DNA of 64,000 bases, from positions 768,001-832,000 of the forward strand of contig JANZKC010000001.1 of NCBI GenBank assembly GCA_025061115.1, read 5' to 3'. Positions 27,683 through 38,400 of the stretch are shown one piece after another; position 1 is the first letter of the stretch, and each line of letters starts with the position of its first letter. The notes beneath the pieces were generated by a model. That model did no database searches. It saw only the letters and a program-made list of their open reading frames with translations, and had not been told where the DNA came from. Both the position numbers and the translations under genes were made by a program. This DNA comes from Candidatus Culexmicrobium cathedralense (GTDB lineage Archaea > Thermoproteota > Methanomethylicia > Culexarchaeales > Culexmicrobiaceae).

Positions 27683-27836
27683 GGGACCCCCTTTAGGGGG
27701 CAGCATGCCGTAGCTCAGCAAGGTAGAGCGGCGGGCTCCAGAGCGCATAGGTAGAATTTGACCGGAAGGGATGATGTAGCTCTGGAGCGCGGGAGCAACC
27801 CGTTGGTCGTGGGTTCAAGTCCCACCGGCCCCACCA
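27683..27836 (+). tRNA. tRNA-Trp(CCA) with two introns: 3/4 (27686-27706) and 37/38 (27742-27797)
   Basis: GGG|intron|GCCG rebuilds GGGGCCG pairing with CGGCCCC-A-CCA; GCGGG-CTCCAG|intron|A-CCCGT; both junctions form BHB motifs. Confidence 0.9.
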
Positions 27837-34374: not shown

Positions 34375-35043
34375 ATGAGAGTGAGATGGCTTGGGCATGC
34401 TGGTTTTGATATAGAGATCTTAGGGAGACGAATATTAATAGATCCATGGCTCACAGGAAACCCTATGGCCAAGAATAAACCCGAAGAATTTAAGAAAGTG
34501 GACGTTATTCTCGTTACCCACGACCATGGCGACCACTTAGGTGATGCCATAGAGATTGCCAAAAACACAGGCGCAACCTTTGTTGGCATTTACGAGTTAA
34601 GCCAATATGCACTATCACAGGGAGTTAAGGAAGCCGTGGGAATGAACATTGGAGGTTCAACAGTAGTAAAAGACTTGGAAGTAATAATGGTCCCTGCATT
34701 TCACTCATGCGAAAAAGGCGCTCCTGTAGGCTTTGTAGTTCAGCATGGAGCTGAAAGCGTTTATCACGCAGGAGATACCTCAGTTTTTAGTGACATGAAA
34801 CTCATAGGGGAACTATACAAACCTAAGCTGGCTCTGCTTCCTATAGGAAGCCACTTCACAATGGGACCAAAAGAGGCAGCTAAAGCTGTAGAGCTAATAA
34901 AGCCAAAGGTGGTGATTCCAATGCATTATAATACATTTCCAGTGATAAGACAAGATCCTCATGAATTCGAAGGACTAGTTAAGGAAGTTGCTCCCGAAGT
35001 AAGGGTAATTATAGCGGAAGTTGGGAAGTGGATTGAAATTTAG
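34375..35043 (+). CDS. UPF0173 metallo-beta-lactamase-fold hydrolase
   Basis: WLGHAGF, THDHGDH, YHAGDT, IPMHYNTF. Confidence 0.92.
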   Translation: MRVRWLGHAGFDIEILGRRILIDPWLTGNPMAKNKPEEFKKVDVILVTHDHGDHLGDAIEIAKNTGATFVGIYELSQYALSQGVKEAVGMNIGGSTVVKDLEVIMVPAFHSCEKGAPVGFVVQHGAESVYHAGDTSVFSDMKLIGELYKPKLALLPIGSHFTMGPKEAAKAVELIKPKVVIPMHYNTFPVIRQDPHEFEGLVKEVAPEVRVIIAEVGKWIEI

Positions 35044-35092: not shown

Positions 35093-36610
35093 ATGAGAAT
35101 AATCAACAATCTCGGCGACATCGAAGTAATGATTCTTGAAAAACTGAAGGAAGCGGGAGGTAAACGTAAACTAGAAGTTCTAGCAAGGGAACTCGCAAAA
35201 ACTACATCGACAATAGCTTCGATCATTGAGAACTTAGCTAAGAAAGGAGCTGTAGCAGTTGTTAAAAAAAAGCTGATATCGGTTTCACTGACTAATGAAG
35301 GTTTAAAGTATGCTAGGGATGGTTTACCGGAAAGAAAAGTATTGCAGAAATTAATCGAAATGGGAGGAAGAGCCCCAATAAGGAGATTAGCATCAAATAG
35401 AAAGATTGGCGAGGAGATAAAAGTTGCAATTGGCTGGGCTAAGAAAAAAGGGTGGATAAAAATAGAGAAGAAAGGAGCAGAGCAGATAGTACAAGTGCTA
35501 ATTGAAAATCCACCAGAGGGATATGACGAGAAAATACTTAAGGAGCTTAGCCAGTCAAGTGGAAGCATTTTCATTAATAAATTAGACTATGAGCTTTATA
35601 GTGCGCTTCAAGATCTAAAAACTAGGAAACTTGTAGTGATCAAAGAGAAAACTGATGCAATAATTTTCCTTACAAGTGAGGGGAAAGAAGTGTTAGCTCA
35701 CGCAGGTGAAAAGCAGGTTATAAACGTACTTGCGCGCGAACACATAATAAAGGGCACATGGAGAAAATGCTATTTCAAACAATACAATGTAACTGCCCAG
35801 CCACCAAGAATCTATCCCGGCAAACAGCACTTCCTTAACGAAATAATAGACAGGGTAAGGCAAACATTGTTATTCATGGGGTTTGAGGAATGTTTTGGGA
35901 AATTTATAGAGTTGGAGTTTTGGAGTTTTGACATGCTATTTTACGCTCAGGATCATCCTTCAAGAAGCTTAAGCGAAGTTTATTGGATTAAAAAACCAGA
36001 AGAAGGCAACATATTAGATAAAGAGCTAATTGATAAAGTGAAAGCCGTCCATGAACATGGATGGATTACAGGTTCAAGAGGGTGGGGAGGTAAATGGAGC
36101 TTACAGCGTTCTAAAAAGCTTATCTTAAGCATAGAACCATTACCCCCCATAATCAGGTATCTATTCGCCCGCAAGAAAACACCCATAAAGGCATTTTGTA
36201 TCTTAAGGACATTTAAACGAGAAATGGCTGATGCCGATGTTCCCATGGAAAGCATAAAGCTAGGCGGCATGTATTGTGATGAAGACGCAAATATGAGCAA
36301 GCTAATTGGAATAATTAAGAAAATACTGCTAGAGCTAGAAATAAGTGAAGTAAAAGTGAGGCCAACGTACTTGTCGTATGCGGAGCCCAGCATTGAAGTT
36401 AGGATAAAGCAAGACAAGGAAAATTGGCTTTCATGTGCGGTTGGAGGTTTTCTCAGACCTGAAATTGGGAAAGTACTTGATCTGGAGATGCCAGCTGTAA
36501 TTTGGAGCATGAATTTAAATGATATTGCTATTGCTTGCTTAAATTTGAGCGGGTATCGAGAAATTTACGCTAGTGACCTTAATGTTTTAAGAAGGTTAGG
36601 CGCGAAGTGA
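35093..36610 (+). CDS. Phenylalanyl-tRNA synthetase alpha-like protein, catalytically degenerate paralog
   Basis: Archaeal PheS architecture (GLPERK, QDHPSR, VKAVHEHG..TGSRGWG, EPS, LRPE), but motif 2 reads FKREMADADVPMESIKLGG and motif 3 reads WSMNLNDIAI. Confidence 0.85.
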   Translation: MRIINNLGDIEVMILEKLKEAGGKRKLEVLARELAKTTSTIASIIENLAKKGAVAVVKKKLISVSLTNEGLKYARDGLPERKVLQKLIEMGGRAPIRRLASNRKIGEEIKVAIGWAKKKGWIKIEKKGAEQIVQVLIENPPEGYDEKILKELSQSSGSIFINKLDYELYSALQDLKTRKLVVIKEKTDAIIFLTSEGKEVLAHAGEKQVINVLAREHIIKGTWRKCYFKQYNVTAQPPRIYPGKQHFLNEIIDRVRQTLLFMGFEECFGKFIELEFWSFDMLFYAQDHPSRSLSEVYWIKKPEEGNILDKELIDKVKAVHEHGWITGSRGWGGKWSLQRSKKLILSIEPLPPIIRYLFARKKTPIKAFCILRTFKREMADADVPMESIKLGGMYCDEDANMSKLIGIIKKILLELEISEVKVRPTYLSYAEPSIEVRIKQDKENWLSCAVGGFLRPEIGKVLDLEMPAVIWSMNLNDIAIACLNLSGYREIYASDLNVLRRLGAK

Positions 36611-36616
36611 TTTTTC

Positions 36617-38293
36617 ATGATACCAATAACAGTAAGTCTGAAAGATCTGCAGTCGTTAATTGGTGAAGAACTAGGCGTAAATGAGATCTTAAAATTATTG
36701 GCGATGACTAAGTGTGAAATAAAGCATGTCAAAGGAGATTTGATAGAGCTTATGGTTCCACTTGATAGACCGGATCTTTTTTCAGTGGAGGGAGTCAGCA
36801 GAGCTCTAAGATGCATCATGGGAACTTATAGGAAGCCCATAATTGACAAGAATGAGAAATGCATATGTCAAGTTTACGTAGATAGTGAAGTTCTCGACAT
36901 AAGACCTTACATTGCTTCTGCAGTGATTAGAGAAGTAAAACTGAGTTGCAAAGCACTAAGACAGATGACACAGCTCAGGAGGAAATTGCATGAAACATAC
37001 TGCAGAGGAAAGCTTCTTGCTTCGATAGAAATTCACGACTACAACTTAACTACGCCACCTCTTACATACTCAGTTAAAGGAGAAGAAGACATAACATTAA
37101 AACCACGCGGAGAAGGAAGAAAATTAAGGTTAACTGAAATTCTGAGGAGAGAACCTTGGAAAAAGCATGCTTATCTACTATTCGGCTACAATCGGCTTCC
37201 AGTAATGGTTGATTCTAAAGGGGAAGTACTATCCGTTCCACCAATTATTGAAAGTGATGAAACAAAAATCACTGCGAATTCATCGGACATACTTCTCATA
37301 GTCACTGGAATAAATGAAAGAGTTGTTGAAGAAGCTTTGGAGATAGTTGCGGCAAACCTCTTGGAGAGGGGAGGAATTTTAAAGCGGGTTGAAATACGGT
37401 ATCCTGACACTTTGTTGATTACTCCTAAAATGGAACCTAGAGAAATCATCATCGAGCCGCAACAGGTGGAGAAAGTCCTTGGAGTTAAAATTGACTTAAA
37501 CAAGTTAATGGCTCTTTTAGTTAAAAGCGGATTTGAAGTAAAAAGCGAAAATGGAAAAGTGAAGGTCGGCGTCCCACCCTACCGCGCTGATGTGATTCAT
37601 GAAATCGACGTAATAGAGGATATAGGAATAGTTTATGGCTTCGATAACATAAAAGGAGGGCCGCTCAGCGTTCTCGCGCCAGGAAAGGCATACCCCATGA
37701 ACAAATTGGCAATGAGAGCAAGAAGGATCATGACCGCCTTGGGATTCCAAGAAATAATAACATGCGTCTTATCCGACAGGAAGGATTTATTAAATAAAAT
37801 GCTTTTAAAAGAAGAGAAAATAATTGAAGTAATAAATCCCATAATTCGAAAATATTCTGCTATAAGGAACTGGCTAATGCCAAAACTTTTAGAATTCCTA
37901 AGCAATAACAAGCATGCACCATATCCTCAAAAGATCTTTGAAATTGGAGAAGTAGCATTAATTTGTGAGGGGGATGAGGAAACAGGAGTAAAGTGCACCT
38001 TAAAGCTAGCAGCGGCAATAACAGATTATAAGGCAGGGTATGGAGACATCCAGGCGACACTATTTGCACTCCTTGAAAATCTGCAAATTCCATTTAAGCT
38101 CGAGCCAACATACCATCCAAGCTTCATCCGTGGTAGGACAGCCCAAATAAGAATTCATAATAGCGTAGTCGGAATAATTGGTGAAATCTATCCAGAAGTT
38201 TTAGAAAACTTCAAGTTGGAAAATCCGGTGGCAGCATTTGAAATGGATTTAGGGAAAATTGCTGCATGCTATCCACAGGAAAGCCGGAAATGA
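36617..38293 (+). CDS. Phenylalanyl-tRNA synthetase beta-like protein (divergent)
   Basis: DRPDLFSVEGVSRAL, IRPYIASAVI, PPYRADVIHEIDVIED, YPQKIFEIG, SFIRGRTA. Confidence 0.88.
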   Translation: MIPITVSLKDLQSLIGEELGVNEILKLLAMTKCEIKHVKGDLIELMVPLDRPDLFSVEGVSRALRCIMGTYRKPIIDKNEKCICQVYVDSEVLDIRPYIASAVIREVKLSCKALRQMTQLRRKLHETYCRGKLLASIEIHDYNLTTPPLTYSVKGEEDITLKPRGEGRKLRLTEILRREPWKKHAYLLFGYNRLPVMVDSKGEVLSVPPIIESDETKITANSSDILLIVTGINERVVEEALEIVAANLLERGGILKRVEIRYPDTLLITPKMEPREIIIEPQQVEKVLGVKIDLNKLMALLVKSGFEVKSENGKVKVGVPPYRADVIHEIDVIEDIGIVYGFDNIKGGPLSVLAPGKAYPMNKLAMRARRIMTALGFQEIITCVLSDRKDLLNKMLLKEEKIIEVINPIIRKYSAIRNWLMPKLLEFLSNNKHAPYPQKIFEIGEVALICEGDEETGVKCTLKLAAAITDYKAGYGDIQATLFALLENLQIPFKLEPTYHPSFIRGRTAQIRIHNSVVGIIGEIYPEVLENFKLENPVAAFEMDLGKIAACYPQESRK

Positions 38294-38306: not shown

Positions 38307-38400
38307 TGGTGGGGCCGCGGAGATTTGAACTCCGGTCACGGGGACCCATTGGGGGAACAGCGTTCTAACCCCGCAGCCTTCCAGGCTAGCCTACGGCCCC
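38307..38400 (-). tRNA. tRNA-Pro(TGG) with 18-nt intron at 33/34 (38349-38366)
   Basis: Spliced CGGGG-TT-TGG-GT-CCCCG; BHB GGGG-TTA-GAAC gct GTTC-CCCC-AAT; GGGGCCG/CGGCCCC-A-CCA. Confidence 0.88.

Follow-up and report, generated by a model that had tools for sequence, protein, structure and literature searches.

What is a second phenylalanyl-tRNA synthetase (PheRS) for, in a genome that already encodes a canonical one? The question is raised by two adjacent genes in a 64,000-nucleotide (nt) stretch of Candidatus Culexmicrobium cathedralense (assembly GCA_025061115.1, contig JANZKC010000001.1, positions 768,001 to 832,000 of the forward strand), referred to here as the window. The genes encode divergent paralogues of the two PheRS subunits, which we name alpha' and beta'; unless a contig is given, all coordinates are positions in the window. 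Both genes are full length, and most of the residues that a synthetase uses to activate and proofread phenylalanine are replaced. We consider it likely that the two products make up a maintained, PheRS-shaped complex that neither aminoacylates nor proofreads and that acts by binding.

35093..36610 (+): alpha', a full-length archaeal-type PheRS alpha paralogue of 505 amino acids (aa), start codon ATG, with a degenerate class II active site
36617..38293 (+): beta', a full-length archaeal-type PheRS beta paralogue of 558 aa, start codon ATG, with a degenerate editing site

An initial annotation of the window had described two intact, adjacent PheS/PheT open reading frames (ORFs) of these lengths, with which ORF calling and family hidden Markov models agree, and every motif string that it quoted was located in the translations. 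The genes are separated by 6 nt in the window and overlap in four other genomes. With the archaeal pheS model NF003210 (PRK04172), alpha' scores 396.3 bits against a cut-off of 350, which places it in the archaeal/eukaryotic type; PF01409 gives 148.8-151 bits (cut-off 19.8), and TIGR00468 gives 204.9 bits, under its cut-off of 237.45. In the case of beta', TIGR00471 (pheT_arch) gives 444.9 bits against a cut-off of 282.65, as expected of the archaeal type, and the Pfam domain order B1-B3/4-B5-CLM (B1, B3_4, B5, tRNA_synthFbeta; CLM, catalytic-like module) is intact. Orthologues of alpha' in three related genomes (G003b, G004b and G005b) score only 163-208 bits with NF003210, under the cut-off. 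SrmL (NF051887) and SepRS (TIGR00470) are both related to the catalytic core of PheRS alpha, and alpha' reaches neither model: TIGR00470 gives it 18.2 bits against a cut-off of 380.65, and NF051887 is not among its NCBIfam matches at E <= 0.01. In distinction from both, alpha' has PheS N-terminal domains and a PheT-like partner.

A canonical pheST in the same genome

The genome (1.98 Mb in 25 contigs, rated 99.99% complete and 7.65% contaminated) carries a canonical pheST at C2:438619-441745, which scores 270 bits with PF01409, 553 with NF003210 and 526 with TIGR00471. The motifs of its alpha subunit are intact (LRSQTT, FTIDRNYRPD...THLPEFNQCEG, YFPFTEPS and AWGLGIDRLAM). Relative to these canonical copies, alpha' is 31% identical and beta' 38%. 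Coexistence of the divergent pair with a canonical synthetase, which is to be expected of a pseudo-synthetase, is found in this genome (G000) and in five further ones.

The window's contig, C1 (843 kb), and C2 (531 kb) have equal G+C content and a tetranucleotide correlation of 0.997. Contigs from an independent metagenome run (X3) cover 30/30 bins of the stretch examined, with no indel and 9 single-nucleotide variants, of which 5 are synonymous and 4 non-synonymous; the pattern is suggestive, the counts being too small to weigh. DNA of the pair is also present in hydrothermal-vent and sediment metagenomes. The pair is real and not an assembly artefact, nor does it stem from contamination; five other genomes repeat the two-copy pattern. 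Genes for pheS and pheT commonly serve as single-copy markers, and their duplication may inflate the contamination estimates of this lineage.

Degeneration of the synthetic and editing sites

In PheRS alpha, class II motif 2 binds ATP and Phe, and the Arg of motif 3 contacts the gamma-phosphate of ATP. The references for aligning alpha' were the canonical alpha of the same genome and human PheRS alpha (3L4G), and family counts were taken from an alignment of 46 rows, 40 canonical and 6 divergent, in which 5/6 of the divergent rows cover the motif 2 and 3 positions. The segments concerned are as follows.

36125..36142 (+): alpha' aa 345-350, LSIEPL, which in the alignments replaces the LR[ST][QH]TT substrate-pocket segment
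36194..36268 (+): alpha' aa 368-392, degenerate motif 2, FCILRTFKREMADADVPMESIKLGG, with Arg changed to Lys and the loop lost but for E386
36368..36391 (+): alpha' aa 426-433, YLSYAEPS, a partly kept Y.P[FY]TEPS segment; the divergent clade does not vary at Y426, Y429 and P432
36500..36532 (+): alpha' aa 470-480, degenerate motif 3, IWSMNLNDIAI, with Arg changed to Asp
35093..35707 (+): alpha' aa 1-205, N-terminal winged-helix (DBD1-3) region, retained according to a weak PheRS_DBD3 Pfam match and the structure model

At motif 2 the Arg of fRxE is a Lys (FKRE), and the TH..EF.Q.EG loop reads AD..ES.K.GG. The motif 2 and motif 3 Arg are both kept in 40/40 canonical alpha rows. Among divergent alpha' sequences, none of the eight with coverage there has the motif 3 Arg, in whose place stand D, N, K, K, E, L, E and S, while the motif 2 Arg is kept in 3/8 and is Lys in 2/8. 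The aromatic residues of the Phe pocket in human PheRS are Tyr-alpha412 and Phe-alpha438, according to the available part of PMC3275996. The equivalent of the first is kept in alpha' (Y429, clade-invariant); that of the second is Leu or Ile in every covering divergent alpha', a shared derived state. A TGSRGWG segment is present at aa 326-332. Because the replacements vary between orthologues, the active sites appear to have been lost and not remade into a new conserved site.

The beta' protein was aligned to the Pyrococcus horikoshii fragment 2CXI, with family counts from 53 canonical and 5 divergent rows.

36971..36991 (+): beta' aa 119-125, QLRRKLH, which in the family alignment replaces QE.LH (B3/B4)
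37238..37255 (+): beta' aa 208-213, PPIIES, with Glu at the position of P. horikoshii Asn217 and human Asn-beta238
37289..37309 (+): beta' aa 225-231, ILLIVTG, with Ile at the acidic position of [DE].TG (P. horikoshii Asp234)
37580..37621 (+): beta' aa 322-335, retained B5 segment YRADVIHEIDVIED, with R323, D325 and D331 invariant in canonical and divergent copies
37835..37909 (+): retained catalytic-like module signature of beta', NP...R.W..P.LL.FLS.N, from the family alignment

The acidic residue of [DE].TG, which we take to be important for editing, is kept in 53/53 canonical beta rows and in 1/5 divergent rows. The same counts hold for the editing-site Asn (53/53 against 1/5), which, in the available part of PMC3275996, is described as sitting at the editing site beside the ester bond (Asn217 in P. 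horikoshii, Asn-beta238 in human PheRS). These comparisons bear out the residue-level claims of the initial annotation. It had held that the motif 2 Arg, the motif 3 Arg and the LRTHTT-type segment of alpha are replaced, as seen against canonical alpha and 3L4G. It had also held that the editing segments of beta are altered while the B5 acidic loop is kept, as seen against 2CXI and the 58 beta rows, and that the N-terminal winged domains of alpha are kept, with which the weak PheRS_DBD3 match and three modelled modules agree.

These modules come from an AlphaFold2 model of alpha' built on a 19-row alignment, with a mean predicted local distance difference test score (pLDDT) of 81. It consists of three N-terminal winged-helix-like modules, each a helix/strand unit with pLDDT of ~80-89, followed by a class II core, and its best fold match in the PDB is human PheRS alpha 3L4G.

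Selection and the remaining constraint

The divergent pair is under purifying selection. All ORFs are open across two families, namely five full-length alpha', one alpha' cut by a contig end and five beta'. In a substitution-only neutral simulation at 0.1 substitutions per site, 1/2000 alpha and 0/2000 beta sequences stayed free of stops. Between the window's alpha' and that of a congener, non-synonymous divergence (dN) is 0.22-0.24 and synonymous divergence (dS) is 2.0-2.7, taken over the N-terminal 333 codons up to the end of the congener's contig, with the active site outside them and dS near saturation. The canonical alpha of the same two genomes gives dN of 0.08 and dS of ~0.95. The dN/dS ratio of alpha' is thus ~0.08-0.12 if the dS of alpha' itself is used and ~0.25 if that of canonical alpha is used. 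Loss of catalytic residues under purifying selection, a further mark of a pseudo-synthetase, is what alpha'beta' displays.

This selection goes together with fast evolution. The divergent copies evolve ~3-4x faster than the canonical copies; in comparisons of the same genomes they are 22-37% identical, leaving aside a congeneric pair at 65.5%, against 59-87% for the canonical copies. What remains conserved can be read from the mean pairwise identity of individual regions, given below for the divergent clade and then for the canonical copies.

alpha' motif 2: 0.22 vs 0.90
alpha' motif 3: 0.21 vs 0.86
alpha' Y.PYAEP segment: 0.48 vs 0.92
alpha' GG.LRPE segment: 0.57 vs 0.93
alpha' N-terminal winged-helix region: 0.28 vs 0.48 (ratio 0.59, the highest relative conservation in the divergent clade)
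beta' editing domain: 0.26 vs 0.68 (ratio 0.39, the lowest in beta')
beta' B5: 0.31 vs 0.54 (ratio 0.57)
beta' CLM: 0.35 vs 0.70 (ratio 0.51)

Constraint has moved off the active sites. Residues that are invariant across the whole family are still invariant, among them, in alpha', H246, G263, F264 and E266 of motif 1 as well as W277, E386, P432 and G452, and, in beta', R51, D53, R323, D325, D331, R369, E379, R417 and N431.

Distribution and origin

How widely is the pair distributed? A search of 41 relatives with alpha' gave two full alpha matches in G000-G005 only. These comprise 5/5 genomes of family f1 and 1/1 of f2, in an order of 12 genomes. In the sister family f3 the divergent pair was found in 0/6 genomes, five of which have the canonical copy only, while one, 74% complete, gave no match. 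Across the class (62 genomes searched) no divergent alpha was found elsewhere; the other second PF01409 matches are proteins of ~535 aa scoring ~150 bits, which TIGR00470 identifies as SepRS in 4/4 tested. Within the class, SepRS occurs in families f4-f7 and f9, with confirmation from four genomes; the window's order (f1-f3) showed no SepRS-like match, and nothing in G000 exceeds the cut-off. Sixty genomes sampled from elsewhere in the phylum yielded no second full alpha copy, the one second match there being a fragment split over contig ends in a single genome. The second match in G015 is a canonical-type fragment of 220 aa on the 1.2-kb contig C17, with partial PheS/PheT unlike that genome's main type, and is probably a binning contaminant.

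Public databases can also be searched for further members of the clade. A profile of six alpha' sequences, run against 1.84 billion representatives, gave a gap in score after five proteins (771-513 bits, then 377). Classification of the best 30 of the 150 matches listed after the window's own protein (P0116-P0145) gave 5 divergent and 25 canonical proteins; of the five, two (P0119 and P0122) were new, and the other three were either part of the input or almost identical to a sequence in it. In a word-based search, 7 of at least 109 matches were classified, and one of them, the full-length congener P0002, was divergent, with 64% identity.

In quick posterior mean site frequency (PMSF) trees of alpha and beta that included five full-length divergent copies, these form a single clade, with support in the Shimodaira-Hasegawa-like approximate likelihood ratio test (SH-aLRT) of 100 (alpha) and 99 (beta). 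As taxonomy predicts, the two copies from one genus are sisters in the beta tree, where the f2 copy takes the outermost place; the alpha tree also pairs the same-genus copies, its deeper order being without support (SH-aLRT 20). A single origin of alpha'beta' preceded the split of f1 and f2. In neither tree does the divergent clade fall within the canonical clade of its own lineage, a placement that is unreliable because the branches are long (the end branches measure 0.86-3.4 substitutions per site, where the median is ~0.33). In approximately unbiased (AU) tests, joining the divergent clade with the lineage's canonical clade was not rejected (p = 0.34 for beta, p = 0.086 for alpha), and the pair may go back to a lineage-specific duplication or to an older paralogue or transfer. 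The canonical alpha of the class comes in two types, F[MY]PSDHPAR in f1, f2, f3 and f6 and FQAQDHPAR in f4, f5, f7 and f8, the latter of which groups with different outgroup families; at that segment the FYAQDHPSR of alpha' resembles the FQAQDHPAR type.

What the complex might do

The catalytic and editing residues are gone and yet the pair is kept intact by selection, so alpha'beta' probably has a job other than charging tRNA. Judging by the residues replaced, we infer that aminoacylation and editing have both been lost. The two subunits presumably form a complex with each other. In a model of alpha' (residues 206-505) with beta', the interface score ipSAE is 0.85, the best control reaching 0.00; this mark is reached by 58/80 solved complexes and by 2/110 mismatched pairs, and it shows likeness to PheRS and not binding, because PheRS complexes have already been solved. 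Three runs share at least 94% of contacts, with partner pLDDT of at least 87.

We read the two genes as a pheST paralogue, passed on vertically, from which the ATP-binding residues (motif 2 loop, motif 3 Arg), a large part of the Phe pocket and the editing-site residues of beta have disappeared. The canonical PheRS on the other contig serves translation, and selection holds both divergent proteins at full length with all PheRS domains. In the mechanism that we propose, the complex would bind tRNA-Phe or another RNA through the winged-helix domains of alpha' and the B1, B5 and CLM surfaces of beta', and could act as a regulator, sensor or chaperone. Since all domains have been kept over a long divergence, the tRNA-docking architecture seems still to be needed, which favours an RNA-binding role.

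A pseudo-synthetase with a maintained scaffold is also what the initial annotation had proposed, and every part of that interpretation that can be tested computationally came out as predicted. It had called for a canonical pheST elsewhere in the genome and would have given way if this were the only pheS; the canonical operon lies on C2, and five further genomes repeat the two-copy pattern. Absent orthologues, together with a dN/dS near 1, would have pointed it to simple decay. Orthologous pairs are present in all six f1/f2 genomes, and dN/dS is well below 1 for the N-terminal two-thirds of alpha'. The maintained scaffold is seen in the full-length ORFs, the kept invariants and the confidently modelled interface, with the caveat on solved complexes given above.

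Several observations weigh against a purely non-catalytic, binding complex. The motif 2 Arg is kept in the congener P0002, in G002a and probably in G003b, and a Lys stands at the motif 3 Arg position in G002a and P0119; some alpha'beta' lineages may retain leftover ATP chemistry. LeuRS-I, a duplicate leucyl-tRNA synthetase (LeuRS) of Sulfolobaceae, indicates that damage to motifs and domains need not mean full inactivity (available part of PMC9437257). The suggestion of tRNA binding is drawn from the retention of domains. Interface residues are marginally more conserved than the rest, at 0.31 vs 0.26 in alpha (permutation p = 0.07) and 0.33 vs 0.31 in beta (p = 0.28). In one pair of genomes from a single genus, the divergent copies are only 31-35% identical and the canonical copies 71-77%, and such fast divergence implies that constraint is weak or shifting. 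Care must also be taken with the dN/dS estimate, given the codons that it spans.

Alternatively, alpha' or beta' could mainly pair with canonical subunits. An editing-free isoform would result if canonical alpha joined beta', for example, and a dominant-negative brake on charging if alpha' joined canonical beta. The invariants that form the interface are kept in both proteins (motif 1 in alpha', CLM in beta'), so cross-pairing is sterically plausible, and beta' is nearer to its canonical counterpart (38%) than alpha' is (31%). Against such an exchange, the two paralogues have been kept side by side or overlapping in 5/5 genomes that show both, and the alpha' and beta' branches are long in the same lineages, as would be expected of mutual partners. 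On balance we regard subunit exchange as unlikely.

It is also rather improbable that alpha'beta' is still an enzyme, that is, an active ligase with a remodelled site. Such an enzyme might be a PheRS isoform that serves particular conditions, might use a non-canonical amino acid or acceptor as a synthetase, or might form adenylates without passing them on to tRNA. The Y.PYAEP and GG.LRPE segments are fairly conserved (0.48 and 0.57), Y426, Y429, P432, E386 and G452 are invariant, the Phe-alpha438 position is Leu or Ile in all covering divergent sequences, and the motif 2 Arg persists in 3/8 sequences, with LeuRS-I as a precedent for partial chemistry. Set against this, the motif 3 Arg is replaced in 8/8 sequences and the SrmL and SepRS models are nowhere near their cut-offs. 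The motif 2 loop, moreover, has no conserved pattern of replacement (0.22), so no new site is being maintained.

Another reading is that the pair is a functionless relic, in slow decay since the canonical copy took over. The very fast evolution, the lineage-specific and progressive loss of the active site (most advanced in genus g3) and the scores under NCBIfam cut-offs of 3/5 alpha' and 2/5 beta' proteins would fit it. Slow decay is nevertheless very improbable, given that every ORF is open across two families where neutral drift at 0.1 substitutions per site keeps at most 1/2000 free of stops, that dN/dS is well below 1 and that the family invariants are preserved. Finally, a second pair due to assembly, binning or contamination is barely credible, whatever the 7.65% contamination rating might suggest, as the contig around the pair spans 843 kb and is normal in composition, the neighbours are core genes that are syntenic in six genomes, and independent metagenome contigs show the same pair.

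Relation to known systems

The best match to alpha'beta' in both sequence and fold is the canonical archaeal/eukaryotic (alpha-beta)2 PheRS, as represented by the human (3L4G) and P. horikoshii (2CXI) structures, which has the same domain architecture and the same alpha-then-beta order. The invariants of motif 1, B5 and CLM are common to both. In alpha'beta', by contrast, motifs 2 and 3, the LRTHTT-type segment and the Asn and acidic residue of the editing site are replaced.

The closest analogue in kind is LeuRS-I of Sulfolobaceae. As described in the available part of PMC9437257 after Weitzel et al. 2020, this duplicate LeuRS binds tRNA-Leu and forms leucyl-adenylate but does not aminoacylate; its editing domain is disrupted, and it is reported to matter for growth. 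Going by that description, it resembles alpha'beta' in being an archaeal, full-length duplicate retained beside a working copy. The differences are that LeuRS-I is a class I enzyme of a single subunit that still activates its amino acid, whereas alpha'beta' is a class II, two-subunit operon that has lost ATP-binding residues.

HisZ is a more distant analogue, as are other proteins that resemble synthetases. It has no tRNA-binding domain and has a known partner, whereas alpha'beta' keeps every PheRS domain. It is a paralogue of histidyl-tRNA synthetase that serves as the regulatory subunit of ATP phosphoribosyltransferase (available parts of PMC7373986 and PMC9437257), and to that extent it is, like alpha'beta', a class II synthetase paralogue without aminoacylation, in its case with a non-translational role. 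In Caenorhabditis tropicalis, duplicates of fars-3 (PheRS beta) became toxins with F-box antidotes, according to the available part of PMC12680543. These are likewise PheRS subunit duplicates gone from translation to new roles; as described there, however, they are eukaryotic, involve beta only and form a selfish toxin-antidote system, in contrast to a paired, syntenic locus of the core genome.

Non-catalytic synthetase paralogues such as HisZ and LeuRS-I are already known to be a repeated source of new biology. What seems to be new here is that a whole two-subunit PheRS operon has been duplicated and kept with its synthetic and editing sites both degenerate. In the literature outside subscription-only papers and supplements we found no account of a duplicated, degenerate archaeal PheRS pair, and the main text of a 2022 review of synthetase duplications contains 0 mentions of 'PheRS' or 'phenylalanyl' (PMC9437257). 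The pair can be seen as a natural experiment on the uses of the PheRS scaffold beyond tRNA charging, in which about eight natural variants reveal the surfaces that must be kept. There is a practical side as well, as current database names label alpha' as an ordinary ligase subunit. For instance, the public cluster that holds the alpha' of a congener is annotated 'phenylalanine--tRNA ligase subunit alpha [Candidatus Methanomethylicota archaeon]'.

Neighbouring genes and a candidate partner

The pair stands in a conserved gene order, PolB - GNAT - UPF0173 metallo-beta-lactamase (MBL) hydrolase - alpha' - beta' - helix-turn-helix (HTH) - NrdD-like, which is found in 6/6 genomes. Identity across the six loci is 47-90% for the flanking proteins, 28-65% for alpha' and 30-40% for beta'. 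The ATG of alpha' is preceded by a GAGGA at a distance of 5 nt. In five genomes of f3, f4, f5 and f7 the MBL hydrolase and HTH genes do not lie beside pheST; because these flanks are unlinked to pheST in other families, synteny does not tell which copy is the original. Defence or mobile context was sought at the locus with PADLOC; only weak winged-helix (wHTH) hits came back, and these point to neither.

34375..35043 (+): UPF0173 hydrolase of metallo-beta-lactamase fold, candidate operon partner (NF001911, 283 bits)

The hydrolase, whose PDB relatives are 6hrg (nearest) and 3x2z, lies directly upstream of alpha' on the same strand in 6/6 genomes, and this constant, co-oriented adjacency makes it a candidate lead to a partner. 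It is tempting to picture alpha'beta' as a non-charging docking platform shaped for tRNA-Phe that works with the hydrolase as a tRNA-directed machine. One version of such a machine would carry out hydrolysis or quality control on (aminoacyl-)tRNA, and another would sense uncharged tRNA-Phe. We consider the idea quite doubtful.

A tRNA gene at 38307-38400 (-) is convergent to beta' and lies 14 nt past its stop; it has an 18-nt intron and an encoded CCA. In G002 and G005, too, a similar tRNA adjoins the 3' end of beta' or overlaps it. It was considered as a tRNA-Phe and rejected, since it reads as tRNA-Pro. ARAGORN left it unnamed in a default run and called it Pro(AGG) with introns allowed; with the intron placed one position earlier it would, in our reading, be Pro(UGG), an isoacceptor otherwise missing in the genome.

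The sole tRNA-Phe(GAA) found in G000 is at C2:258860-259571, and its anticodon loop is interrupted by a 637-nt intron that a long inverted repeat closes. Two LAGLIDADG-like motifs lie in this intron in different frames, which looks like a frameshifted homing-endonuclease ORF. A regex scan of the genome found no second tRNA-Phe gene with an uninterrupted anticodon arm. A tie between alpha'beta' and an unusual tRNA-Phe was also considered and dropped, because G002 and G004 have alpha'beta' and yet an intronless tRNA-Phe.

Two further tRNA genes of the genome call for a note. At 27707-27829 (+), which corresponds to C1:795707-795829, an Rfam tRNA match of 39 bits and ~123 nt, uncalled by ARAGORN, is by eye possibly a long-intron tRNA, Trp(CCA). 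At C4:48768-48863 (-) ARAGORN calls Arg(ACG), and the Rfam alignment has 22 extra nt in the anticodon arm; with these 22 nt removed at a non-canonical position, our reading would be Lys(CUU), an isoacceptor otherwise uncalled.

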